12,653 nucleotides of DNA. It comes from Armatimonadota bacterium. Its GTDB lineage: Bacteria > Sysuimicrobiota > Sysuimicrobiia > Sysuimicrobiales > Humicultoraceae. The notes under the pieces were generated by a model. The model was not told the DNA's origin, did no database searches, and was given only the letters and a program-made list of their open reading frames with translations. The stretch covers positions 1 through 12,653 of the forward strand of contig JBQTJP010000101.1 in the NCBI GenBank assembly GCA_052386995.1, read 5' to 3'. Numbering within the stretch: the stretch's first letter is position 1; each line of letters opens with the position of its first letter. The translations under genes were made by a program, and so were the position numbers. Positions 439-12,653 of the stretch are shown here, piece after piece.

Positions 439-2049
439 TTAACGGCGGACGGTCTTGAGGACCCAGACGCCTTTGAAGTCCGCCAGGCCGTCGGGTTCGT
501 AGAGGTCCGTCAGCAGCTTCTTGAGCCGCTCCCATGCTGGGACCGGGAAGGGGCGCGTGAAGACGATCCAGATGACTCTGTGGCGGTCCGCGTAGGCCCG
601 GAACGCCGCCTTGTTGGCTTCGTCGGCGGCGGGATCGGGGCGGGCGGTCCCACCCGTGACATCCCAGAGCTCACGGGGCGTCATCTCCACGATACGCTGC
701 GTGCCTCTGTAATAGTAGGAGAACGGAATCGATCCTATGCCGGGGATAAGCAGAATGAGATCGTCCAGTGCAGCCCCCTCCGCGACCAGGGCCGCCGCGG
801 TGCGCCAGTTCCACACATCACCGCTGGCGTACACCCGCTCCAGGGCAGGAGCGGAGAACCCCAGGAGAGCCAGTACCAGCGCCAGGGCCACGGTGCGCCG
901 GAACGCCGGTGCTGCGCGGCCGCTGACCGCCGCAATGCCGCAGGCCGTGAGGATGGCGAAGGGAGGCACCAGATATGAGAAATACCGCGGGTAGAACACG
1001 TTGTGGCGAAGCGTGAAGACCAGGACGATGCCCAGCGGTACGACAAGGTAGCCGACAAGCAGCCACAGGGATCGAGGGGTCTTACGCAGGAACACCGCGC
1101 CGGCCAGCACGAGCGCCAGGAATGGAACCAGGATCGCGGCTTCAACGATGCCCGGCGTCGGCGGGGCCTGCCATCCGAAGTACCCGTCGAATCCAAGGAT
1201 GTGGCCGCCAAAGGCGAGGAGACCGAAGAGATTCAGGACCGTGTGCAGCGCGAATGGCGGGCGGACGTGGGGCCACGCGCGTCCGGACAAGACCGTCTCT
1301 ATCAGGAGGGGCAACCACGGGAGGTACCCTATCACGATGAGTAACTGGCTCACCACCCACGGGCGGCGGATATGGGGAGCCGCGGCCAGCACGAAGACGC
1401 CCTGACCCGCCAGCGTGAGGAACGCAAAATGATGCGTGTAGAGTGAGAGTACTGTGGCGGCGACGTAGGCCGGCCATGCCCACCACCGTTCCTCTGCGGC
1501 CAGCAGGAGGGCCGCCCACGAGGTGATCGTCAGAAGGCCGAGCAGAGGATACATCCTGGCCTCCTGCGCAGCGACGACGTGCAGCGGTGCGACTGCCGTG
1601 AGAAACGCGCCGAGGGCGCCTACGAGGGGACCGCCGAGCCGCCGGCCCAGCCACCAGGTCCCCCCGACCGTGAGGATGCTGGCCAGGGCGCCGACCGAGC
1701 GGAGCGCGGCTTCACCGATCCCGAACATCTTGATCCATCCCGAGAGGACCAGGTAATACAGCGGAGGATGCGGATCGCCCCACTTCGAGAAGGCGATCAC
1801 TTCTCCCAGCGACCGGTTTGCGGCGAACGCGGAAAACGCCTCGTCGAACCAGAGGCTGCGGTCGCCGATCGACGCAAACCGCAAGACCGCCGCCAGCGCC
1901 ATTAGACCCCCCACAATCGCGATCTGCACGAAGACGCCCGACCGCGCTACCGCCTGGCCGCCCGAGGCAGATGGGGACATCCCGCGACGCCCGAGTGAGG
2001 GCCACACAGTAGAAGGTATCGCGCGATCGAGGGGATCGTCACGCATCAT
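439..2049 (-). CDS. GT-C fold membrane glycosyltransferase (PMT/GT39/ArnT-like), candidate pilin glycosyltransferase
   Basis: Polytopic membrane protein with SLWFDEAFS (acidic DE motif after the first TM), DPHPPLYY, QEARMY, LYTHH and PRYF motifs typical of PMT_2/ArnT-like enzymes. Lies between two pilin genes. Start could instead be ATG 1980. Confidence 0.85.
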   Translation of the reverse strand: MMRDDPLDRAIPSTVWPSLGRRGMSPSASGGQAVARSGVFVQIAIVGGLMALAAVLRFASIGDRSLWFDEAFSAFAANRSLGEVIAFSKWGDPHPPLYYLVLSGWIKMFGIGEAALRSVGALASILTVGGTWWLGRRLGGPLVGALGAFLTAVAPLHVVAAQEARMYPLLGLLTITSWAALLLAAEERWWAWPAYVAATVLSLYTHHFAFLTLAGQGVFVLAAAPHIRRPWVVSQLLIVIGYLPWLPLLIETVLSGRAWPHVRPPFALHTVLNLFGLLAFGGHILGFDGYFGWQAPPTPGIVEAAILVPFLALVLAGAVFLRKTPRSLWLLVGYLVVPLGIVLVFTLRHNVFYPRYFSYLVPPFAILTACGIAAVSGRAAPAFRRTVALALVLALLGFSAPALERVYASGDVWNWRTAAALVAEGAALDDLILLIPGIGSIPFSYYYRGTQRIVEMTPRELWDVTGGTARPDPAADEANKAAFRAYADRHRVIWIVFTRPFPVPAWERLKKLLTDLYEPDGLADFKGVWVLKTVRR

Positions 2050-2122: not shown

Positions 2123-2560
2123 CTACAGGCCGGCCTGCGTTCGCGCGGACGACCCGTTGCTCTGGAGTGTCAGGGTGACCACCGCAGCGCCGGGCAGCGG
2201 ACCGCACGCGCTTCGCCCGGCAGGCTCATCGTTGGCGGCGATGAGGATCGAAGCCGCCGCGGCGTTCGTGATGGTAAACGACCAACAGGCGCTTGCAGGC
2301 GCCGAGAAGCCCAGGCTGCTGACCAGGGCCGCGCTGTCGACTCCCGCCCATGTGTTGTACTGCTGGAAGTACGCCCACGCCAGGGTCTTGGCCTCCTGGA
2401 GCAGGTTGTCGCCTTCGGCGATCAGTGCGTTTCTGCGGGCGCCCAGGTACCGCGGCACCGCCAGTGCAACGAGAATGCCGAGGATCGCGAGCACGACGAC
2501 CAGCTCGATCAGCGTGAAGCCGCGCTCACTCCTCTTCGCTTTCCAGAAGAACCTCAACAC
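2123..2560 (-). CDS. pilA: Type IV major pilin (PilA-like)
   Basis: MLRFFWKAKRSERG|FTLIELVVVLAILGILVALAVPRY: canonical G|F...E5 prepilin cleavage/methylation site; two Cys in the C-terminal half; GTG start with a strong AAGGAGG SD; followed by a hairpin. Confidence 0.9.
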   Translation of the reverse strand: MLRFFWKAKRSERGFTLIELVVVLAILGILVALAVPRYLGARRNALIAEGDNLLQEAKTLAWAYFQQYNTWAGVDSAALVSSLGFSAPASACWSFTITNAAAASILIAANDEPAGRSACGPLPGAAVVTLTLQSNGSSARTQAGL

Positions 2561-2858: not shown

Positions 2859-4145
2859 AATCGCGTGATCATCGTCGGGCTCGTCCTCTTCATCGCCGCT
2901 ATCCCGCTGCTGCCAACCATCGAGAGAAAGGTCGAAGCGACCCTGCTGACCTCGCTGCTCCTCGTCGTCGGACTCTATATCCACGCGCGGCGGGGCGGTC
3001 ACCCCGTTCGTACCCCGTTGGACGTCCCGGGAGTGACCCTCCTGCTGATTGCGACACTTGCCACGATTGCGTCCGTCGATCGCTTCGGGAGCCTGTTCCC
3101 ATCCTCGCTGCGGGGCGAGGGACTGCTGACGTTTGCCGGGTACATCATCGCGGCACTCGCCGCATCGCGGCTGGACCGGCGGGGCAGCAACGCCGTCGTG
3201 GCCGCCGCCCTGGCCGGAGGCAGCCTGGTGGGCGCCATCGCCCTGGCCCAGTTCTATGGATTACCCGTGAACGCGTGGCTGGGGATCGAAGGCATTCAGC
3301 GTGAAGGCCGAACGCCGGGGACACTCGGAAACGCGTTCTTCCTGGGCGGCTACGTCAGCCTCGTTCTCCCCGCGGCCGTCGCCCTTGCCGCTTTGGCGAG
3401 CGGAGAGAAGGCGCGCTGGCTGTACACCGCTGCCTCCACGCTCCTGTTTGCGGCGGCCGTCACATCTCAGACCCGCGCGGCGTGGGGCGCCCTGGCCGGC
3501 GCAGGGGTGCTGCTCTTCGTGCTGCTTCCACGGTCTCCCCAGATCCGTCGCCGTCTGATCACACTGGCGGCGATTGGCGTCGTCACGGCCCTCCTGCTGG
3601 ACGTCACCAATCCGTATGTGTCGTTTGGCCGGCGCGTGACGCTGACCTTCGACCCGAGCGACTCGTCGCTGGCGCAGCGACTCTATGTCTGGAAGCACAC
3701 CCTTCCGATGATCGTCAAGCGTCCTGTCCTGGGGTGGGGGTTTGGCGCGCTCCAGGGCCGGTTTCCCGATGCGGGATCACCGGAATGGCTGCGACTGTAT
3801 GGCTTCAGAATCGTTGGGATCGACACACCTCACACCGAGACGCTGCACTTCGCGTTCAGCATCGGCCTGGCCGGTCTGGCGGCCTATGTGTGGGTGTGGG
3901 CGGTGGTCGCATCTGCTCTTCGCGGCGCGTTGCGCCGCCGGGCCGGCTCATACGCGCTCGCGGCGGGACTTGCCGCCGCCATGGTCGGGTATGGGTTGTG
4001 GCTCCAGCTGGGCTGGAGCCACATGGGTCCCGCGAACGTCTTTTGGGTGCTTGCCGGTACGGCCGTCGCCCTGGGGCGGGAAGAGCGCCCTCTGCTTAGC
4101 GACCGCCCGTCGCCAGCTGGAAGATCGGCAGGTACAGCGAGATGA
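2856..4145 (+). CDS. O-antigen ligase-like (Wzy_C) membrane protein; candidate pilin O-oligosaccharyltransferase (PglL/TfpO-like)
   Basis: Many TM segments; RTPGTLGNAFFLGGY, SQTRAAW, SSLAQRLYVWKHTLPMIVKRPVLGWGFG and DTPHTETL match Wzy_C-family motifs with the conserved Arg and His. The track's start at 2718 adds an implausible hydrophilic N-terminus; 2856 (or 2847) is preferred. Divergent from pilA; 3' end overlaps the pilC 3' end by 50 bp. Confidence 0.8.
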   Translation: MNRVIIVGLVLFIAAIPLLPTIERKVEATLLTSLLLVVGLYIHARRGGHPVRTPLDVPGVTLLLIATLATIASVDRFGSLFPSSLRGEGLLTFAGYIIAALAASRLDRRGSNAVVAAALAGGSLVGAIALAQFYGLPVNAWLGIEGIQREGRTPGTLGNAFFLGGYVSLVLPAAVALAALASGEKARWLYTAASTLLFAAAVTSQTRAAWGALAGAGVLLFVLLPRSPQIRRRLITLAAIGVVTALLLDVTNPYVSFGRRVTLTFDPSDSSLAQRLYVWKHTLPMIVKRPVLGWGFGALQGRFPDAGSPEWLRLYGFRIVGIDTPHTETLHFAFSIGLAGLAAYVWVWAVVASALRGALRRRAGSYALAAGLAAAMVGYGLWLQLGWSHMGPANVFWVLAGTAVALGREERPLLSDRPSPAGRSAGTAR

Positions 4146-5313
4146 CCATCGCGCCGACGATCACGCCCATGACGATGATGAGGATCGGCTCCAGCAACGA
4201 GGTCAGGCTCGCGACCATCGTCTCGACTTCGACATCGTAGAAGTCGGCAACCTTCTCGAGCATCTGCTCGAGTGCACCGGTCTCTTCGCCCACCTTGGCC
4301 ATCTGCACGACCATCGGTGGGAAGACGCCCGAAAACTGCAGGGGGATCGCGATCGTCTGACCTTCGCGGATGCTGGCCCGGACCGCGTCCACCGCTTCGC
4401 CGATGACCACGTTGTCGATGGCCTTGGCCACGACCTCGAGCGACTGCATGATCGGCACGCCGCTACTGATCAGCGTCCCCAGCGTGCGTGTGAAGCGGGC
4501 CACGACGATCTTCCGGTTCAGTTCGCCCAGCACCGGCATCTTGAGCTTGAAGCGGTCGTAGCGCGCCCGGCCGCCGGGGGTCTGAAGATACCGGCGCAGG
4601 ACGTATACCGTGACCCCCATCACCGCCAAGATGATATACCAGTATCGCCGGATCGCCACGCTGCTCGCCATCGCGATCTGCGTCGGCAGCGGCAGCTGGC
4701 CCGACCCGCCGATCTCCCTGAACAGCGTCTCGAACTGCGGCAGGATCACGATCGTCATGAAGAACAGACCGCCCATGGCGGCCATGGTCAGCAGGATCGG
4801 GTAGACCATCGCCGAGCGGACCTTGCTGCGCAGTGCCTGCTCCTTTTCCATGTAGGTGGCGACGCGGTTGAGCACTTCGTCGAGCACGCCGCCCGTCTCG
4901 CCCGCCTTCACCATGTTGACGTAGAGGGACGAGAACGCTTTCGGATGGCGGCCCATGGAATCCGACAGGGGACGCCCGCCTTCGACGTCCACCCGCACCG
5001 CCGCGGTGATCTCCTTGAGCCGCTTGTTCGACGACTGCTGCTCGAGGATCGTCAGCGTCCGCACCAGCGACAATCCGGAGTTGACCATCGTGGCGAACTG
5101 CCGGCTGAAGATGGCCAGGTCCTTGAGGCCGATGCCCATCCATCCCTGCAGGCTCTGCAGGACGTCGGTCCGCTCGATCGTGCGCTCGAGCTTCGTGATG
5201 AAGAACCCCATGTCGCGCAGCCGGTCGACGACCATGGCGTCGCTGTCGGCTTCGATCACCCCGGCGATCATGCGGCCAGTGTTGTCTTTGGCGCTGTAGC
5301 GAAAGACGGCCAT
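4096..5313 (-). CDS. pilC: Type IV pilus platform protein PilC (GspF family)
   Basis: MAVFRYSAKD, FSRQFATMVNSGL, LYVNMVKAGETGGVLD, SAMVYP, VGEETGALEQML, LLEPILI, YLPIF; 405 aa; directly follows pilT. Confidence 0.96.
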   Translation of the reverse strand: MAVFRYSAKDNTGRMIAGVIEADSDAMVVDRLRDMGFFITKLERTIERTDVLQSLQGWMGIGLKDLAIFSRQFATMVNSGLSLVRTLTILEQQSSNKRLKEITAAVRVDVEGGRPLSDSMGRHPKAFSSLYVNMVKAGETGGVLDEVLNRVATYMEKEQALRSKVRSAMVYPILLTMAAMGGLFFMTIVILPQFETLFREIGGSGQLPLPTQIAMASSVAIRRYWYIILAVMGVTVYVLRRYLQTPGGRARYDRFKLKMPVLGELNRKIVVARFTRTLGTLISSGVPIMQSLEVVAKAIDNVVIGEAVDAVRASIREGQTIAIPLQFSGVFPPMVVQMAKVGEETGALEQMLEKVADFYDVEVETMVASLTSLLEPILIIVMGVIVGAMVISLYLPIFQLATGGR

Positions 5314-5319
5314 CTCCTC

Positions 5320-6495
5320 TTACCTCCTGGCAGCACGAGCAGGTTCGGCTTCACCGCCGGCTTCCCGAATCATCTTGCGGAGCTCCTCCGGATGGATCGC
5401 CCGGGACAGCGCGTCGTCGAGTGACACCATCTTCTGCAGCACGAGATCGCGCAGCGACTGGTCCATGGTCTGCATGCCGTACTGGCCGCCGGTCTGGATC
5501 GCGGTCTCGATCTGGTGGGTCTTCGCTTCCCGGATGAGGTTCTGGATCGCCGGAGTCGAGAACATGACCTCGACCGACGGCACCCGGCCCACTTCCTCGA
5601 TCGTCGGCCAGTTCCCCGTGGTCCCGCCGAGGCGCGAGCGCTGGGCGGTCCGGCTGTCCCGGGTACCCCGAAACCGCGCGTTGGGCAGCAGCTGCTGCGA
5701 GATGACCGCCTCGATCACGCTGGCCAGCTGGATACGGATCTGCTGCTGCTGATACGGCGGAAACACGTCGATGATGCGGTCGACCGACTGGGCGGCGTTC
5801 GCCGTGTGGAGCGTGGCGAACACCAGGTGACCGGTTTCGGCGATCGTCAGGGCGGCGCCGATAGTCTCGAGGTCGCGCATCTCGCCGATGAGGACGACAT
5901 TGGGGTCTTCGCGCAGCACGGCCCGCAGCGCGTTCGGGAAAGATTGCGTGTCAAACCCCAGCTCTCGCTGGTTGACGATGCTCTTCTTGTGCTGATGAAG
6001 GTATTCGATCGGATCTTCGACGGTCACAATGTGCCCGCTGCGCTCATTGTTGATGAAGTCGATCATCGACGCCAGCGACGTGGACTTGCCGTGCCCGGTC
6101 GGGCCGGTCACGAGGACGAGACCGCGGGGCTTGCGCGTGAGATCCTTCAGCGCCGGCGGCAGGTTCAGGGCCTCGATGGACGGGATGGTCATGGGCACCA
6201 CACGGGTGGCGATGCCGACGGCCCCCCGCTGCCGGTAGATGTTCACCCGGAAACGGCCCAGGCCCGGCACGCCGTAGGACAGATCGAGCTCCCAGAACTT
6301 CTCGAACTTCTGCTTCTGGAACGTGTTGAGCATGCTGTACCCGAGCTGGAACGTGTCCTCGGGCGACAGCACCTCGTACTGCTCCATGGGCTGCAGCCGG
6401 CCCCAGACGCGCATCGTGGGCTTGATGCCCGATGTCAGGTGCAGGTCCGATGCCGAGGCGGCCACGACCTCTCGTAGCAAGTCATCAATGTGCAT
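5320..6495 (-). CDS. pilT: Type IV pilus retraction ATPase PilT
   Basis: ASDLHL, Walker A GPTGHGKST, TVEDPIEY, LREDPNVVLIGEMRD (Walker B), AETGHLVFATLH (His box), AIRNLIRE-like AIQNLIRE, GMQTMDQSL. Confidence 0.96.
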   Translation of the reverse strand: MHIDDLLREVVAASASDLHLTSGIKPTMRVWGRLQPMEQYEVLSPEDTFQLGYSMLNTFQKQKFEKFWELDLSYGVPGLGRFRVNIYRQRGAVGIATRVVPMTIPSIEALNLPPALKDLTRKPRGLVLVTGPTGHGKSTSLASMIDFINNERSGHIVTVEDPIEYLHQHKKSIVNQRELGFDTQSFPNALRAVLREDPNVVLIGEMRDLETIGAALTIAETGHLVFATLHTANAAQSVDRIIDVFPPYQQQQIRIQLASVIEAVISQQLLPNARFRGTRDSRTAQRSRLGGTTGNWPTIEEVGRVPSVEVMFSTPAIQNLIREAKTHQIETAIQTGGQYGMQTMDQSLRDLVLQKMVSLDDALSRAIHPEELRKMIREAGGEAEPARAARR

Positions 6496-6508: not shown

Positions 6509-8218
6509 CTACTCGACGAAAACCACGCGCAGCAACTCTTCGAGCGAGGTCATCCCCGCGAGAACTTTGGCGACCCCGTCCTGCTGCAGCGTCCGCATGC
6601 CCGCGTTCTGTGCGGCGCGCTTGAGGACATCCGAAGGCGCCTGTTTGGTCACCAGCGTCTTCGCTTCGTCGTCCATGATCAAGATCTCAAAGAGGCCGAT
6701 GCGCCCCTTGTAGCCGATGTGGCTGCAGTGCTCGCAGCCCTTGGCCTTGTAGATGACGATCTCTTCGCCTGCCGCACCCAGACCGTAGCGCGCCACGACC
6801 TCAGGCGGAGGCGTGTAGGGTTCCCGGCACTTCTGGCACAGCACGCGGACGAGCCGCTGCGCGACGACGCCGATCACGGATGACGAGACCAGAAATGGCT
6901 CGATCCCCATATCGGCCAGCCGCACGACCGCACCGGGCGCGTCGTTGGTGTGCAGTGTCGACAGCACCAGGTGGCCGGTCAGGGCGGCGTTGATGGCGAT
7001 GCGGGCCGTCTCCTCGTCGCGGATCTCGCCGACCATGATGATGTCGGGATCCTGGCGCAGGAACGACCGCAGGCCGGTCGCAAAGGTCAGCCCGGCCTTG
7101 GGGTTGATCTGCACCTGGGCGATGCCCGGCAGCTGGTACTCGACAGGGTCTTCGATCGTGATGATGTTGACCTCTGTCTTGTTGAGCCGATTGAGGATGG
7201 CGTAGAGGCTGGTCGTCTTCCCGCTGCCGGTCGGACCGGTAATCAGGATGATCCCGTACGGCTTGGTGACGAGCCCCTCAAATCGCGGAAGGTCGTAGGA
7301 GAGTAGGCCGAGCTTCTCGATGCCGACCAGCGCGGTCCGCTTGTCCAGGATCCGCATGACGACCTTCTCGCCGAAGGTCGTCGGGATGCTGGAGCAGCGC
7401 AGGTCGATCTCGCGCCCGTCGACGCGCAGCTCGATGCGGCCGTCCTGGGGCGCACGCCGCTCGGCGATGTTCATGTTCGCCATGATCTTGACGCGGCTGA
7501 CGGTCGCGGCCTGGACGTGCTTGGGCGCCATCTTGACGCTGTAGAGCGTGCCGTCGATCCGGTACCGGATCCGCACGTTGGTCTCTTGCGGCTCGACGTG
7601 GATGTCGCTGGCGCCCTGCCGGATCGCCTGCACCAGCATGAGGTTGACCAGGCGCACGACCGGGGCTTCCTCGGTGATCTGCCGGAGCTTGTCGATCCCG
7701 GCGTCATCGTCGATGGCGACGTCGCTCTGTCGGATCTCCTGGATCACCTGGTCGAGGGAGTTGTCCATCGCCGGATACTGGTTGACGGCGTACGTGAACC
7801 CCTCGGGGGTGATCGCGGCGGGGATGATCTCGCGCTCGACGACCCGCCGGATGTCGTCGAGCGCCAGCACGTCCAGCGGGTCGACCATGCCCAGCACCAG
7901 CGCGTCCCCGTCGGTCCGCAGCGGCACCACCTGGTAGCGGCGGATCAGCGCCTCGGGCAGCGACGTCAGCACGGCCTCGGGAATCGTCGTCCCTTGAATG
8001 TGCACGTACTCGATGCCGATCTGGTTGGCGATGGCCTTCGCGATCGCGTCCGGACTGGTGACCCCCAGCGCGACCAGCACCTTGCCCAGGCGGTCGCCGC
8101 TGGTCTGCTGGGCCTGGAGCGCCTGATCGAGCTGCGCCCGGGTGATGAGACCGGCCTCGACCAGGACTTCGCCCAGGCGGACGCGTCGCCGGGCGACCGG
8201 GCTCTTAGAGGGTCTCAT
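6509..8218 (-). CDS. pilB: Type IV pilus extension ATPase PilB with N-terminal MshEN c-di-GMP-binding domain
   Basis: Tandem MshEN motifs RLGEVLVEAGLITRAQLDQALQAQ and RLGKVLVALGVTSPDAIAKAIANQ (8021-8179); ASDIHVEP, GPTGSGKTT, LRQDPDIIMVGEIRD, TGHLVLSTLHTND; Zn-binding CQKC...CEHC. Confidence 0.96.
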   Translation of the reverse strand: MRPSKSPVARRRVRLGEVLVEAGLITRAQLDQALQAQQTSGDRLGKVLVALGVTSPDAIAKAIANQIGIEYVHIQGTTIPEAVLTSLPEALIRRYQVVPLRTDGDALVLGMVDPLDVLALDDIRRVVEREIIPAAITPEGFTYAVNQYPAMDNSLDQVIQEIRQSDVAIDDDAGIDKLRQITEEAPVVRLVNLMLVQAIRQGASDIHVEPQETNVRIRYRIDGTLYSVKMAPKHVQAATVSRVKIMANMNIAERRAPQDGRIELRVDGREIDLRCSSIPTTFGEKVVMRILDKRTALVGIEKLGLLSYDLPRFEGLVTKPYGIILITGPTGSGKTTSLYAILNRLNKTEVNIITIEDPVEYQLPGIAQVQINPKAGLTFATGLRSFLRQDPDIIMVGEIRDEETARIAINAALTGHLVLSTLHTNDAPGAVVRLADMGIEPFLVSSSVIGVVAQRLVRVLCQKCREPYTPPPEVVARYGLGAAGEEIVIYKAKGCEHCSHIGYKGRIGLFEILIMDDEAKTLVTKQAPSDVLKRAAQNAGMRTLQQDGVAKVLAGMTSLEELLRVVFVE

Positions 8219-8447
8219 GACGCTCCATGATCATCACGACGTGGGATTTGTGCACCATCACGACGTTCGTCTCGTAGAGCAACCGGCCGTCCAGGCTGAA
8301 CACGCGGGCCGTGGTGATGGGCAGAAAATCCTTGGCCTGGTTCAGACGGTCGGAGATGCGGGCCGTCGACGGCAGATGCAGATCGCCCTCGACCCGATGA
8401 TGAGGCGTGAACATGATCACCTGCTCGCGGTCCATCTCGACCTTCAT
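8205..8447 (-). CDS. 80-aa conserved-looking hypothetical protein (resembles DUF6812-type proteins; possible Sm-like fold)
   Basis: MKVEMDREQVIMFTPHHRVEGDLHLPSTARISDRLNQAKDFLPITTARVFSLDGRLLYETNVVMVHKSHVVMIMERHETL. ATG 8447 overlaps the MerR stop (ATGA) and the end overlaps the pilB start by 14 bp. The track's longer start at 8642 overlaps the MerR gene and is unlikely. Family label is from recollection and was not searched. Confidence 0.75.
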   Translation of the reverse strand: MKVEMDREQVIMFTPHHRVEGDLHLPSTARISDRLNQAKDFLPITTARVFSLDGRLLYETNVVMVHKSHVVMIMERHETL

Positions 8448-8725
8448 CGCCCCGAGCCCCGTCCCTCCGCGGCCAGTGACGCGGTCCGGGGGGTCTCGAC
8501 GAGACGCTGGATGCCCTTCAGGCTCATCCCGCGGTCGACCATGGCCTTGACCCAGCGGATCCGCTCGACATCTTCTTCGCTGTAGAGGCGGTGACCGCCT
8601 CCGGTCCGGGCCGGCGAGAGCAGATGGTACTGGTCTTCCCATGCCCGGATGCGCCGCGGGTTGACGCTGGTCAGCTGTGCGACGGTGCGGATGGGATAGA
8701 TGGGCGCGCGCTTGTCAACAATCAT
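8444..8725 (-). CDS. MerR-family HTH regulator, DNA-binding domain only (CarA/MlrA/HspR-like)
   Basis: YPIRTVAQLTSVNPRRIRAWEDQYHLLSPARTGGGHRLYSEEDVERIRWVKAMVDRGMSLKGI is a MerR winged HTH; 93 aa with no effector domain; ATGA overlaps at both ends. Confidence 0.9.
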   Translation of the reverse strand: MIVDKRAPIYPIRTVAQLTSVNPRRIRAWEDQYHLLSPARTGGGHRLYSEEDVERIRWVKAMVDRGMSLKGIQRLVETPRTASLAAEGRGSGR

Positions 8726-10293
8726 CGGAGACCTCCAGTGACTCCCGTACGCTGCGCCGTTGCGTAGTCGCGGGTCGGTCCGAACCCGTGCTCGCGCAGG
8801 TAACTGTAAATCTCCTGCAACTTCGAGAAGCCATGGAAATCGGGTCGGTACTCCTGGTCCGTCTTGTAGTCCAGCTCGACGAGCTTGTTCAGCGTGACGA
8901 AGAACGCGTACTGGACGATGTTGGACGCCGCCTCCGGCGCGTCGCGATTCTTGTCGATGAACATGTTGACGATATCGACGCGCGGCAGCTCATTCGTGGC
9001 GATGCCTTCGGACTTCGCGCGGGTCTCGATCAACTGCCGGAGATCGTGCGTGGCCTTCCAGTCCTTCGCCAGCACCATGGCGACGTCGAGGTCATATTCC
9101 AGGTCGCCGGAGCCCATGCTGTGATGCATCGTCGGGCGGTTGAACGGGTTGAAGATCTCTGACTCCTCCACGGGCCGCTCGTCCAGGCGGCAGCCCTCTT
9201 TGTCCAGCGGGGAGATCGCGAAGATCGGACAATTCAACTCCAGGCTCATCTCCGCCAACGCCGTCGAGATCCGGTCGGTGCGGGCCTTCCAGTCATCAAC
9301 GTATTCGTTCGACGGGATCTTTTGGAGGTAGTCGAAGAAGATCACGATGTCTTGCGTTTGAAACTCCTGCATCAGGTTGTGTGCGTGCGCCCGGATCCGG
9401 TCGAGCGTCTCCTTCCGCCCGGCCTCGACAAGGTGCAGGTAGGGACCGTAGCGGGCCAGCGAATCCCTTGCCGCGGCCACCTGCGGAGCCACCGCGTTGC
9501 CGGACCCATCCCACCCACCGAGGATCGCGGTGGGATTGATGCCGGTTTCCTTGGCGATCAAGCGCGCCGCGAGCACGCGCCGGGTCTGCTCCCAGGTGTA
9601 GTACAGCACCGGGACCCGATGATTGGTGGCGACGTACGCGGCGAGATCGAGCGCAAAGTTCGTCTTACCACGGCGCGGGGCGCCGGCGAGCCCGTAGTAG
9701 AAGCCGCGCCGGAGTCCCGAGAGCAGCATGTTCAGGCGATCGAACGGGCTGATCGAGAAGCCGAGGATCCCGTCTGTCATCTCCTCGCGCCCGGGCGTGG
9801 CCAGGCCTCCGAACGCCTCCGAGATCGGCGAGACCTGGCGCCGCACGCGGCGGCGCTGGATCTCGAGCAGCTGATGGATCGCCTCGGTCGTGAACTGCAC
9901 GATGTCAGCCTGCTGCGTGTCGCCCCTGTAGAGGTAGCCGCCGATGTTCTCGTGCACCGACGAGAGCAGCTCGCGGCTCTCGTGCGCCTTCAAGACCTCG
10001 ACCTGGGCGAGGAGATCGCCGGCGTTCAGTGGGGGGATCTGTGCCACCGCCTCCAGGTACCGGTCGAGTTCCGGAGAGATCAGGTTGCGGTCGGCGAGCT
10101 CCGCCCGCACCGTGCTCTCTTCGACCACGGCGCCCGGAGAAGCATAGAGCTCGAGGATGACCTTGGCCAGGCGGCGCGCCTGCGGCGAGCGCAGCAGGTC
10201 CACGTGAAAGCCTTCGTTGACGGCGAGCATGGCGAGATGGCGGTCGCGCAGCAGTCCACTGAGCAGGCGAGTCTCGGTCTGATAGAGATCCAC
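8722..10293 (-). CDS. Atypical DnaB-like (SF4/RecA-fold) ATPase/helicase paralogue
   Basis: N-terminus resembles the DnaB N-domain. C-domain has H1 GAPRRGKT, H1a VLYYTWEQ, H2 IFFDYLQ, H3 ELNCPIFAISPL, H4 GSGDLEYDLDVAM and a KNR finger. GTG start with a GGAGG SD. Confidence 0.85.
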   Translation of the reverse strand: MDLYQTETRLLSGLLRDRHLAMLAVNEGFHVDLLRSPQARRLAKVILELYASPGAVVEESTVRAELADRNLISPELDRYLEAVAQIPPLNAGDLLAQVEVLKAHESRELLSSVHENIGGYLYRGDTQQADIVQFTTEAIHQLLEIQRRRVRRQVSPISEAFGGLATPGREEMTDGILGFSISPFDRLNMLLSGLRRGFYYGLAGAPRRGKTNFALDLAAYVATNHRVPVLYYTWEQTRRVLAARLIAKETGINPTAILGGWDGSGNAVAPQVAAARDSLARYGPYLHLVEAGRKETLDRIRAHAHNLMQEFQTQDIVIFFDYLQKIPSNEYVDDWKARTDRISTALAEMSLELNCPIFAISPLDKEGCRLDERPVEESEIFNPFNRPTMHHSMGSGDLEYDLDVAMVLAKDWKATHDLRQLIETRAKSEGIATNELPRVDIVNMFIDKNRDAPEAASNIVQYAFFVTLNKLVELDYKTDQEYRPDFHGFSKLQEIYSYLREHGFGPTRDYATAQRTGVTGGLR

Positions 10294-10418
10294 CGTGCGG
10301 TTCCCTCCGATGTCGCGCGGCCAGACCGCGTGTGGCGGCCTCGCGCCGGCAACGCGAGAGTGGTCGCGATGTGGATATGCGTGCCCTGAACCTCCCGTGA
10401 ATCTCTTCGGACCTTGGC

Positions 10419-10447
10419 TTGCGCCGTGCCCAACCTTGTGCTATTGT
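10419..10447 (+). promoter_or_regulatory. Candidate sigma70 promoter for the riboswitch-pilB2 transcript
   Basis: TTGCGC (10419-10424)-N17-TATTGT (10442-10447) with extended TG at 10439-10440; predicted start near 10454, upstream of the riboswitch. Confidence 0.55.
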
Positions 10448-10488
10448 GTTCGCAATCTTCGGCGGGCAAGTCGAAATATGCCCAGAAG

Positions 10489-10516
10489 ATTGTAGCACTA
10501 GTCTCGAACGGGCAAA
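10489..10516 (-). promoter_or_regulatory. Candidate extended -10 promoter for the DnaB-like-pilBTC operon
   Basis: Minus strand TGcTACAAT (10497-10489), with TTTGCC/TTGCCC 15-16 nt upstream; predicted start near 10482. Confidence 0.5.
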
Positions 10517-10584
10517 CCCGAAGCGATTCGGGGACGCAAAGCCGAGGGACCGGCTCCTATGCCGGTCGGCCGGGTTGCTACGAG
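10503..10584 (+). ncRNA. c-di-GMP-I (GEMM) riboswitch aptamer
   Basis: GGGCAAACC-CGAA-GCGA-TTCG-GGGACGCAAAGCC matches the GEMM P2 consensus with a GNRA tetraloop. P3 is AGCC/GGTT plus GACCGGC/GCCGGTC; P1 is CTCG/CGAG. Ligand-contact equivalents of Vc2 G20 (10511), A47 (10538) and C92 (10578) are present. Located in the 5' leader of a pilB. Confidence 0.92.
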
Positions 10585-10589
10585 AAGCG

Positions 10590-10620
10590 CGGCGGCCTAC
10601 TCGGGGCCGCCGTTGTGATT
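10590..10620 (+). terminator. Putative intrinsic terminator, riboswitch expression platform
   Basis: CGGCGGCC (10590-10597), 7-nt loop, GGCCGCCG (10605-10612), then TTGTGATT (imperfect U-tract), immediately after the aptamer. Confidence 0.6.
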
Positions 10621-10690
10621 CGTGGGGAAATTCGAGCGGTCTTGGGCATATCCTTAGAGATCGACACCAACGATCACAGCCGGGGCCATC

Positions 10691-12653
10691 ATGCCTTCTT
10701 CCGACCACCGAGACGGCGCGCTGCATACCCTCAAGAACGCCGTTGGCCTGCCCGATGACAGCCTGACCCTCGAGCGCGCCTTTCGCTTCGCCGACGCGCG
10801 CGCGGCGGTTCGGGCCGGGCGCATGACAGAGGCGCGCGACGCGTACCTCCACCTGGCCGAGCTGGACGGGGACGAGCCCTGGGTTCATTGGGACCTGGCG
10901 ACGATTTTCCGGGCCCTCGAACTGCGGGGCGAGGCCGGACTTGCGTACCTGACCGCGGCCGACAAACATCTTGCGCGCGGCGAGACCGACCAGGTCTTTC
11001 AGGCGTATCAGCAGGCGGCGGCGGTGTCCCCGAATGATCCTCAAGTTCAGGCGAAGCTGGCGGAGCCGCCCACGCGGCCTGCGCCGCCAAACGGCGGCGG
11101 GCCCGGCGTGGCGGTGCGACAGCCCCCCGTCGCGCCGCCCTCCCCTCCAAAGCGACGTGAAAAGCCACCGGTCGAGCCGGCGGCGCCGCCCGCCGACGCG
11201 GCTGGCGCCGCCGACGGCGCCCCGCCGCCGGCTCGACCACCGCGTGCACGGGCCGGAAGTGAGGCGCTGGGGACGATCCTCGTCAGCATGGGCATTGTGA
11301 CCGAAGGCCAGCTGGCCGCGGCGCTGGAAGTCCAGGGCCGTACCGGCGAGCGCCTCGGCCATATACTGCGCGACATGGGCGTGGTCTCCGACGTCGATCT
11401 CGCGCGCGGCATGGCGGAGCAGTGGGGCTATCCGTACATCACCGTGGGCGAGCGCCGCGTCGACGCCGAGGTCGCCAAACTCATCCCGCAGGCCCTGGCC
11501 CGCCGTCACAAGTGCATCGCGGTCGAGAAGCGCAACGGTCGCGTCCTGGTCGCCATCGCCGACCCGCTGAACGTCATCGCGCTGGACGACGTACGGCTGA
11601 TCACCGGCATGGAAGTCGACGTGGCGGTGTCCACCGAAGATGAGATCGCCACCGCGCTCGCGCGCAGCTACCAGATCACCGACACGGATTTGATGGAACG
11701 CGTGTTGCGGGAGTCTTCGCCGGAGTTCGGCGCGGAGCTCGGCAGCGAGGACGATCCCACGCTCGAGCAGCTGAAAGCCCTCGTTGAGGAAGCGCCCGTC
11801 GTCAAGCTCGTCAACCTGATCATCGATGAAGCGGTCAAGCAGAGCGCCAGCGACATCCATATCGAGCCGCAGCGCGGCCAGGTCTGGATCCGCTACCGGG
11901 TGGACGGCGTGCTGCGGGACGTCATGAACCCACCCAAGCATCTCAAAGCGGCTCTGGTCTCGCGCATGAAGATCATGGCCGACATGGATATCGCCGAGCG
12001 CCGCAAACCGCAGGACGGCCGCATCCATCTCGTCGCCGATGGCCACAACATCGACCTGCGAGTCTCGACGCTGCCGACGATGTTTGGCGAGAAAGTCGTC
12101 ATGCGCATTCTCGATCAGTCCTCGACGATGATCGGCCTGACCAAACTGGGATTCCCCAGCGACACCCTCCGCCAATGGGAGAACGCGGCCGCCAAGCCCT
12201 ACGGGTTTCTCCTTGTCACGGGTCCCACGGGAAGCGGGAAGACCACGACCCTCTACGGCACGCTGAGCAAGCTGAACACGATGGACAAGAACATCGTGAC
12301 CGTTGAGGATCCGGTGGAATACCAGATCCCCCGGATCAATCAGGTCCAGGTCAACGCGAAAGCCGGCCTCACGTTCGCCAACGGTCTGCGCAGCATCCTC
12401 CGGCAGGACCCGGACATAGTGCTCGTGGGCGAGATCCGCGACCAGGAGACGGGCCAGATCGCCATCCAGGCCTCGCTGACCGGCCATCTCGTCCTCTCCA
12501 CCCTGCACACCAACGACGCCGCCGGCGCGATCACCAGGTTGGTCGACATGGGGATCGAGCCCTTCCTGATCAGCTCATCGCTGATCGGGGTGCTGGCGCA
12601 GCGCCTGGCCCGCGTGATCTGCACCAAATGCAAGGTGGCCTACTCGCCTCCAC
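10691..12653 (+). CDS. pilB: Second PilB/GspE-family ATPase with TPR-like N-terminus, Pro-rich linker and degenerate MshEN (3' truncated by window)
   Basis: Hand translation from ATG 10691 (in-frame stop upstream at 10655), open to the window end: MPSSDHRDG...YQQAAAVSPNDPQVQAKL-(Pro-rich)-ALGTILVSMGIVTEGQLAAALEVQGRTGERLGHILRDMG...ASDIHIEP...GPTGSGKTT...LRQDPDIVLVGEIRD...TGHLVLSTLHTND...CTKC. Missing from the ORF track because it has no stop in the window. Confidence 0.94.
   Translation, partial: MPSSDHRDGALHTLKNAVGLPDDSLTLERAFRFADARAAVRAGRMTEARDAYLHLAELDGDEPWVHWDLATIFRALELRGEAGLAYLTAADKHLARGETDQVFQAYQQAAAVSPNDPQVQAKLAEPPTRPAPPNGGGPGVAVRQPPVAPPSPPKRREKPPVEPAAPPADAAGAADGAPPPARPPRARAGSEALGTILVSMGIVTEGQLAAALEVQGRTGERLGHILRDMGVVSDVDLARGMAEQWGYPYITVGERRVDAEVAKLIPQALARRHKCIAVEKRNGRVLVAIADPLNVIALDDVRLITGMEVDVAVSTEDEIATALARSYQITDTDLMERVLRESSPEFGAELGSEDDPTLEQLKALVEEAPVVKLVNLIIDEAVKQSASDIHIEPQRGQVWIRYRVDGVLRDVMNPPKHLKAALVSRMKIMADMDIAERRKPQDGRIHLVADGHNIDLRVSTLPTMFGEKVVMRILDQSSTMIGLTKLGFPSDTLRQWENAAAKPYGFLLVTGPTGSGKTTTLYGTLSKLNTMDKNIVTVEDPVEYQIPRINQVQVNAKAGLTFANGLRSILRQDPDIVLVGEIRDQETGQIAIQASLTGHLVLSTLHTNDAAGAITRLVDMGIEPFLISSSLIGVLAQRLARVICTKCKVAYSPP

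Follow-up and report, generated by a model that had tools for sequence, protein, structure and literature searches.

The 12,653-nt stretch analysed here (the window) is contig JBQTJP010000101.1 of a bacterium catalogued as Armatimonadota and placed in Sysuimicrobiota, the CSP1-3 phylum, which is often labelled Armatimonadota. Its minus strand carries a gene for a DnaB-like paralogue, here called DnaBL, followed by genes of a type IV pilus motor. An earlier reading of this DNA (the original prediction) had marked positions 8940-9690, which correspond to DnaBL residues ~202-451. Our comparisons of sequences and gene order suggest a pilus-related role for DnaBL. The gene and the parts of its product are listed below.

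8722..10293, minus strand: DnaBL (DnaB-like paralogue), 523 aa, GTG start, TGA stop (DnaB_C, TIGR00665, AlphaFold2 model)
9844..10293, minus strand: N-terminal helical domain, hairpin and linker helix, residues 1-150, DnaB_N-like (TIGR00665 alignment, Foldseek, model helices 3-149)
9661..9684, minus strand: Walker A / H1, GAPRRGKT, residues 204-211 (HMMER alignment, family statistics)
9586..9597, minus strand: H1a, TWEQ from residue 233, catalytic Glu235 (HMMER alignment, family statistics)
9322..9333, minus strand: Walker B / H2, DYLQ, residues 321-324 (HMMER alignment, family statistics)
9199..9216, minus strand: H3 region ISPLDK, residues 360-365, with Gln replaced by Pro and the next Arg by Lys (family statistics)
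9139..9180, minus strand: acidic insert ERPVEESEIFNPFN, residues 372-385, in the lengthened H3-H4 loop (2r6a alignment, loop statistics)
9103..9126, minus strand: H4 region HHSMGSGD, residues 390-397, with the Arg-Glu of DnaB replaced by Met-Gly and Ser-Gly retained (HMMER alignment; predicted local distance difference test score, pLDDT, low at 390-396, as expected of a flexible loop)
8944..8952, minus strand: K-x-R element (KNR; DKNRD from 447), residues 448-450, arginine-finger position (HMMER alignment, family statistics)
8725..8859, minus strand: C-terminal extension, residues ~479-523 (~45 residues), in which helix 489-501 is conserved and the tail varies (2r6a alignment, family alignment, model)

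A GGAGGG Shine-Dalgarno sequence precedes the GTG start, and the open reading frame is free of stops and frameshifts. Pfam DnaB_C (PF03796) matches residues 183-455 at 87.2 bits against a gathering threshold of 27 (E 1.5e-24). The NCBIfam equivalog for replicative DnaB, TIGR00665, aligns over residues 5-456 with 103.9 bits, its cut-off being 385.25, and none of the NCBIfam DnaB models scored DnaBL above its own cut-off. An AlphaFold2 model built on a 56-row alignment has a mean pLDDT of 82.1, low confidence being limited to the interdomain linker (153-172), to 365-367 and 390-396 in the loop, and to the 15 residues at the C-terminal end. In a Foldseek comparison of this model with the PDB the top matches were all full-length DnaB chains, with 475-493 columns aligned (for example 7t22_A, E 8e-23 over 493 columns, and 4esv_I, TMq 0.59), showing that the N-terminal domain and the linker helix are kept in DnaBL. 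As modelled, DnaBL has the whole DnaB architecture, with N-terminal helical domain, linker helix and RecA-type C-terminal domain.

The DnaB family (superfamily 4, SF4) is defined by motifs H1, H1a, H2, H3 and H4, as stated in a passage of PMC1950529. We paired these motifs by a residue-by-residue HMMER alignment with Geobacillus DnaB (2r6a; E 2e-13), and took frequencies from 129 full-length members of the DnaBL family (of which P0001 and P0002 are identical) and from 90 DnaB-type proteins, namely 89 unnamed representatives of 420-535 aa and the genome's own DnaB. The original prediction held that Walker A, the catalytic Glu, Walker B and the K-x-R finger are retained, and the alignment bears this out: Walker A pairs as AGAPRRGKT with AARPSVGKT, H1a as TWEQ with SLEM, the Glu being retained, and Walker B reads DYLQ in both proteins. 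The Walker A Lys, the catalytic Glu, the Walker B Asp, K448 and R450 are each present in 129/129 family members and are conserved in the DnaB-type proteins. The prediction had also read H3 as changed from SQL to SPL and H4 as altered, and here too the alignment agrees, pairing AISPLDK with ALSQLSR and HHSMGSG with DIRESGS, with extra residues ahead of H4.

The family statistics extend this from one protein to the whole family. The H3 Gln position holds Pro in 117 members, Ser in 9 and Val in 3, as against Gln in 58, Ser in 26 and Ala in 4 of the DnaB-type proteins, while the H3 Ser is kept in 129/129 members and the residue after H3 is Lys in all 129 versus Arg in 88 of the 90. At H4, the basic position is V61/M56/T7/K2 in the family and R54/K34 in the DnaB-type set, and the acidic position is Gly in all 129 members, compared with E72/D11. 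The H4 basic residue is thus gone in 127/129 members (V, M or T in 124/129) and the pair is replaced family-wide; only the Ser-Gly of H4 is retained, with two invariant His beside it. On this distribution, we regard the H3 and H4 substitutions as fixed family characters under selection. As evidence against a helicase, which is how the original prediction had used them, the two motifs differ in weight: the H4 replacement stands, being family-wide, while the H3 part is weak, since Ser replaces the Gln in 26/90 DnaB-type proteins and the loss of Gln alone is not diagnostic.

Between these motifs lies the acidic insert, which had been predicted to precede H4 and is confirmed both by the 2r6a alignment and by the charge of the loop. 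Homology puts the H3-H4 segment in the middle of the ring, with a proposed role in DNA binding, and the [RK]-E-S-G of H4, likewise at the ring centre, is a proposed DNA-binding element (both from a part of PMC1950529). Measured from the H3 Ser to the H4 Gly-Asp, the loop averages -4.84 in net charge (range -8 to -1) in the family (n=129) and +0.87 in the DnaB-type proteins (n=90), and its mean length is 36.2 versus 25.6 residues, that is, about 11 residues longer. Taken per subunit, the same loop segment bears on the pore-charge check that had been suggested, and it would be expected to make the pore lining acidic in the family. As for the predicted C-terminal extension, it is real and carries the conserved helix 489-501, but it is shorter than first appears (~45 residues), as the two strands before it, to about residue 478, can still be aligned to the C-terminal end of DnaB.

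The family so described is well bounded. A word-indexed search gave 439 relatives of DnaBL at E<=1e-3, the best 120 at 46-100% identity, and a scan of 1.84 billion representatives gave 8731 matches at E<=1e-3 and only 27 at 1e-30; among the full-length matches in that scan the score falls from 312 to 109 bits, which shows the DnaBL family to be sharply delimited. Its 129 members come from several phyla. In two distant members, P0132 and P0133 (728 and 793 aa), the DnaB-like part is preceded by a zinc-ribbon-like CxxC...CxxC segment at the N-terminus and by a long linker rich in Pro and Gln.

The genome has a canonical DnaB elsewhere, on contig C205 (8422-10812), with the motifs SLET, DYLQ, ISQLSR, LRESG and KHRNG, and a RadA on contig C28 (20087-22921). 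Each of these two has an intein in its P-loop (in DnaB, at GK|C...HN|T); DnaBL, unlike them, is free of inteins. To place DnaBL among these proteins we inferred a tree by maximum likelihood in IQ-TREE (LG+G4, quick search) on 465 columns and 56 rows, made up of 18/129 family members, 6 short or intermediate relatives, 30/89 DnaB-type proteins (every third), the own-genome DnaB, and the own-genome RadA as outgroup. All 18 family rows are monophyletic, with an SH-like approximate likelihood ratio test (SH-aLRT) value of 99, and so are the 31 DnaB rows, own DnaB included (SH-aLRT 99), in a quick search with a single long outgroup and a program warning of a long-branch join between P0149 and RadA. 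The original prediction named nesting among the replicative DnaBs as what would refute it; in this tree the family stands apart from them. Judged by the tree and the separate canonical DnaB, DnaBL is not the replicative helicase. Family members are labelled 'replicative DNA helicase' by JGI and 'DnaB-like helicase C-terminal domain-containing protein' or 'AAA family ATPase' by NCBI, and the first of these labels is probably wrong.

The other genes and sites of the window are the following.

8444..8725, minus strand: MerR-type helix-turn-helix (HTH) gene, 93 aa (Pfam MerR_1, 1.1e-21; nearest NCBIfam models the MlrA, HspR and CarH N-termini)
8205..8444, minus strand: DUF6812 gene, 79 aa (PF20660, 9.9e-16)
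6509..8218, minus strand: PilB1, MshEN plus T2SSE ATPase (T2SSE 9.5e-142)
5320..6495, minus strand: PilT-type retraction ATPase (domain search)
4096..5313, minus strand: PilC platform protein, T2SSF x2 (domain search)
10691..12652, plus strand: PilB2, with N-terminal TPR, Pro/Ala-rich linker, MshEN and T2SSE ATPase (domain search; cut by the contig end)
2718..4145, plus strand: Wzy_C (O-antigen-ligase-like) membrane protein (domain search)
2123..2560, minus strand: prepilin gene (domain search)
439..2049, minus strand: PMT_2/GT39-type glycosyltransferase (domain search)
10464..10487, minus strand: conserved 24-nt block TTCTGGGCATATTTCGACTTGCCC upstream of DnaBL, possible promoter or operator (alignment of 22 f1 upstream regions; f1 is one of the CSP1-3 families labelled here f1, f3, f4 and f5)

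Genes at the start of this series are packed into one another. The ATG of the MerR-like gene overlaps the DnaBL stop (ATGA), its own stop overlaps the DUF6812 ATG in the same way (ATGA), and the DUF6812 gene overlaps the start of pilB1 by 14 nt; after pilB1 there are gaps of 13 nt to pilT and then 6 nt to pilC. From this arrangement, DnaBL heads a predicted translationally coupled operon comprising the MerR-like gene, the DUF6812 gene, pilB, pilT and pilC. Upstream of DnaBL and divergent from it lies pilB2, so that two PilB paralogues flank the operon head, and the MshEN domain of PilB2 carries a c-di-GMP-binding motif (NF053729, residues 193-244). A search of positions 8100-10750 for sigma-70-like promoters found none, and the single terminator-like site in that interval, for which chance alone would give 1.3, lies within the DnaBL gene on the plus strand. 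We rejected a sigma-54 reading of the DnaBL upstream region, the GG and GC elements of the conserved block being at the wrong spacing, and when the 24-nt block was searched for in the own genome with mismatches allowed, the block itself and one site with 6 mismatches came up but no second copy. The DUF6812 product may be a small PilB-associated protein. The trio of Wzy_C, prepilin and PMT_2 genes, also present in related loci, suggests O-glycosylation of the pilin. No integrase, primase or phage genes were found in the window.

We then compared DnaBL neighbourhoods across relatives, scanning one genome per species (259 relatives) and using the best 80 loci, in which neighbours were identified by tblastn with the window proteins and, for some loci, by Pfam. 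These loci belong to Candidatus Fervidifonticultor, Sysuimicrobium, Sysuimicrobiota, Acidobacteriota, Desulfomonilaceae/Thermodesulfobacteriota, one Limnocylindrales and one Eisenbacteria. PilB, PilT or PilC adjoins DnaBL in 36/80, all at least 53% identical to the query and all from CSP1-3/Sysuimicrobiota (families f1, f4 and f5), so that on the gene orders compared the pilus link of the family is limited to this one lineage. It takes three arrangements: TPR-PilB2 divergent from DnaBL, MerR, DUF6812, PilB1, PilT and PilC; PilB, DnaBL, PilB, PilT and PilC on a single strand; and TPR-PilB2 divergent from DnaBL, PilT and PilC. At one further locus (1/80), Pfam places DnaBL between pilin-Wzy and PilD-pilin-PilM. 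The MerR-like gene directly follows DnaBL in 21/80 loci, all f1, at 79-91% identity, which makes it more conserved than DnaBL across those loci. A homologue (50-60%) lies 4-5 kb upstream of DnaBL in f4 (three loci on two distinct contigs, the third row repeating a contig), and a search of the f5 loci for it found none. DUF6812 occurs in 20/80 loci.

Outside these loci DnaBL has other neighbours. In Acidobacteriota, Limnocylindrales and Eisenbacteria it is followed directly by a YfcE/ApaH/PrpA-like Metallophos_2 phosphoesterase and, after it, by enolase, a HEAT-repeat protein and a dynamin-like GTPase, the first of these four being located as follows.

~1.3-2.9 kb after the DnaBL start (loci L100, L101, L102, L104, L106, L107, L108): YfcE-like Metallophos_2 phosphoesterase, 232-310 aa

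In f3 a YfcE-like Metallophos_2 phosphoesterase lies 3-4 kb downstream of DnaBL, and Desulfomonilaceae loci have DUF6125, a small SMC-like ATPase and a PAS histidine kinase around DnaBL. The f3 pilus cluster comprises MerR, TPR-PilB2, PilB1, PilT, PilC, pilins and Wzy but no DnaBL; reciprocally, our genome has on another contig a block of phosphoesterase, S9 peptidase and cobalamin adenosyltransferase genes without DnaBL, the same block that is found near DnaBL in f3. Together, these two clusters lacking DnaBL indicate that it moved between two contexts, and suggest relocation between the pilus and the phosphoesterase setting within CSP1-3, in either direction.

We surveyed 94 genomes of the order; the tallies include genomes G025 and G017, and dropping both shifts counts by 1-2 and alters no conclusion (row L046 of the TPR-domain alignment may be the same organism as G025). 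DnaBL is present in 72/94 genomes and in 43/54 high-quality ones, as one intact copy per matching genome; where a second match was seen, in 3 genomes, it is a piece of this gene at the end of a contig. The PilB2 TPR domain occurs in 65/94. DnaBL and TPR-PilB2 are found together in 64/94 genomes and are both missing from 21; DnaBL alone is found in 8 and TPR alone in 1. Of the genera, 25 have the pair, 6 lack both and none is discordant. The f3 genomes, in which the two genes are unlinked, divide into 17 with the pair, 3 with DnaBL alone and 2 lacking both. In five genomes of other phyla the TPR profile gave nothing but generic TPR matches. PilC (T2SSF) was tried as a correlate in the same way and rejected, as it does not discriminate: it is present in 88/94 genomes, including all 6 of genus g21, which lack DnaBL. 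The pilus cluster of g21 has a PilB without the TPR domain. As far as joint presence can tell, these results support a tie between DnaBL and one specific pilus subsystem, that of TPR-PilB2.

The reading that we favour, with belief and doubt in about equal measure, is that DnaBL is a DnaB-derived, non-replicative ring NTPase serving as an accessory or regulator of the two-PilB pilus motor in CSP1-3. Having a complete inter-subunit ATPase site, DnaBL would most likely form a ring that binds and hydrolyses nucleoside triphosphate (NTP), and the conserved linker helix together with the K-x-R element acting in trans points to a hexamer. Its central-channel loops would be acidic, at about -4 to -5 per subunit; with the H4 basic/acidic pair lost and the loop ~11 residues longer and acidic, canonical threading of single-stranded DNA appears unlikely. 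In part this supports the original prediction, whose further proposal, a repurposing as a switch or scaffold, stays conjectural. Membership of the pilus-motor module and co-presence with TPR-PilB2 argue for an ATP-dependent accessory or regulator that may act on or with the two-PilB motor, perhaps by contact. A more specific form of this proposal, which we think quite unlikely, would make the DnaB-derived hexamer a bacterial counterpart of ArlH that docks on the extension motor, its ATP state gating the two PilBs and PilT and its acidic loops engaging a protein or cation rather than DNA; the candidate contact would then be between the TPR domain of PilB2 and the conserved helix near the DnaBL C-terminus.

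Several observations weigh against an accessory or regulatory role at the pilus motor. No pilus gene was found within ~8 kb of DnaBL in 43/80 loci (one of these contigs is just 1.8 kb), which include f3 of CSP1-3 and every Acidobacteriota, Desulfomonilaceae, Limnocylindrales and Eisenbacteria locus, and pilus clusters occur without DnaBL nearby (f3) or without DnaBL at all (g21). The 94 genomes are related and therefore not independent; DnaBL and TPR-PilB2 are adjacent in f1 and f5, which makes their joint absence from fragmented assemblies trivial; and the TPR domain, at 25-30% identity, is at the limit of what the search can detect. At the protein itself, the H4 Ser-Gly and two invariant His remain in the family, and some nucleic-acid binding by DnaBL may persist; the position of the loop in the pore is, moreover, taken by homology from a part of PMC1950529. 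Because the contexts in other phyla are non-pilus ones, the pilus link may be lineage-specific or derived, and the core activity of the family may be more general. It may be, for example, a KaiC-like NTP switch paired with a phosphoesterase, recruited to the pilus only in CSP1-3.

Pili mediate DNA uptake in many bacteria, and the place of DnaBL in a pilus operon would also suit a protein that is still a DNA motor, either a helicase or translocase for DNA uptake through the type IV pilus or a recombination enzyme like RadA. The full DnaB architecture, the intact ATPase site and arginine finger, and the remaining H4 Ser-Gly and two His all agree with this, as does the description of RadA as a DnaB-type helicase (PMC5512693, abstract). 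What makes us consider it unlikely is the protein, since the H4 basic residue is lost in 127/129 members and the loop stands at -4.8 per subunit, and also the surroundings: although ComEC and DprA are encoded elsewhere in the genome, control genomes show these two in most bacteria whatever the competence, no ComEA, ComEC or DprA was found in the window or in the related loci examined, and the neighbours in other phyla are not DNA-related. We give far less credence still to DnaBL being the replicative helicase of a phage, plasmid or other mobile element, or a decaying dnaB duplicate, which we regard as very improbable. It does match a generic DnaB-like replicative helicase in PHROGs (phrog_19, 3.4e-34), and its nearest ESM Atlas cluster (score 0.97) is mostly viral by label, but a scan of 2.9 million viral contigs does not bear the label out, giving no close member and 4 matches at 22-28% identity. 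The absence of stops and frameshifts, motifs invariant over 129 members from several phyla, a single intact copy in each of the 72/94 matching genomes at a chromosomal, syntenic position, and a window without integrase, primase or phage genes all speak against such an origin. A phage or defence-system helicase was likewise considered and rejected, PADLOC giving 0 hits for DnaBL and the viral contigs only those matches of 22-28% identity.

It is harder to separate our favoured reading from one with which it overlaps, that DnaBL is a KaiC-like signalling NTPase outside the motor, a switch acting on expression, a second messenger or phosphorylation through the MerR-like protein, the phosphoesterase or the histidine kinase. 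Translational coupling to a MerR-type HTH gene that is better conserved than DnaBL (79-91%) would fit such a switch, yet that gene directly follows DnaBL in f1 only; in f4 it is 4-5 kb upstream, and the f5 loci yielded none. Similarly, a Metallophos_2 gene is directly downstream in Acidobacteriota, Limnocylindrales and Eisenbacteria and within ~4 kb in f3, a PAS histidine kinase is near DnaBL in Desulfomonilaceae, and PilB2 has the c-di-GMP-binding MshEN motif; at the same time, these neighbours vary by phylum with no single conserved partner, and an autokinase site cannot be named from the sequence. On balance we find this explanation improbable.

To our knowledge, bacterial type IV pilus motors are thought to use PilB/PilT-type ATPases alone, and a second, unrelated ring ATPase is known only in the archaeal archaellum (ArlH). 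If the accessory or regulatory reading is true, a DnaB-derived ATPase in the pilus motor operon would be a new accessory or control element of a very widespread machine, and a clear case of the fold of a replication helicase reused beyond DNA unwinding. In practice, the label 'replicative DNA helicase' could mislead counts of replication genes in these phyla. Full-text literature searches returned no paper on a DnaB-like gene in a pilus operon, nor on DUF6812/PF20660, and term searches of the main texts of the CSP1-3 papers PMC11604079 and PMC11962464 turned up neither pili nor DnaB nor helicase.

Compared with known systems, DnaBL is closest in build to DnaB (SF4; TIGR00665; 2r6a, 4esv, 7t22), with which it shares the two-domain architecture, the RecA-type core, H1, H1a, H2, the K-x-R element and the linker helix. 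It differs in the replaced H3 Gln and next Arg, the replaced H4 Arg/Lys-Glu, the acidic loop ~11 residues longer, the conserved C-terminal helix, the TIGR00665 score of 103.9 versus 385.25, the separate clade and the pilus operon. Among its nearest relatives outside the family are short DnaB_C-like proteins (P0150, P0151, P0154, P0166 and P0183; ~390-400 aa; E 1e-25 to 1e-15), which like DnaBL have a lengthened loop, with an E-G-x-x-I/V-D element, and a C-terminal helix, but which lack the N-terminal domain and, in those read, have a degenerate Walker A. They end in a conserved basic tail, K-I-K-x-S-[IL]-K-L, and the locus of one (L143, 8001-9194; one organism, on 2 near-identical metagenome contigs) lies between polysaccharide-synthesis genes and mraW-ftsI-murE and has no pilus genes.

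RadA/Sms, a DnaB-type helicase active in recombination, is a non-replicative DnaB relative with a K-N-R-type element. Unlike DnaBL, RadA bears a zinc finger at its N-terminus and a Lon-like domain at its C-terminus and has no DnaB N-terminal domain, and DnaBL does not group with the own-genome RadA, the outgroup of our tree. ArlH (FlaH), on the other hand, is a KaiC-like RecA-type ATPase of the archaellum motor, where its partner is the PilB-like ATPase ArlI. For archaeal clusters of type IV filament genes, a passage of PMC13705601 mentions homologues of ArlH and a RecA-like ATPase. Like DnaBL, ArlH is a RecA-superfamily NTPase encoded with the motor ATPase of a type IV filament; unlike DnaBL it is archaeal and consists of one KaiC-like domain, lacking the N-terminal domain of DnaB, and the sequence kinship of the two is shown at superfamily level only. 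By analogy, a second ATPase other than PilB in a machine of this type would have its nearest functional precedent in ArlH.

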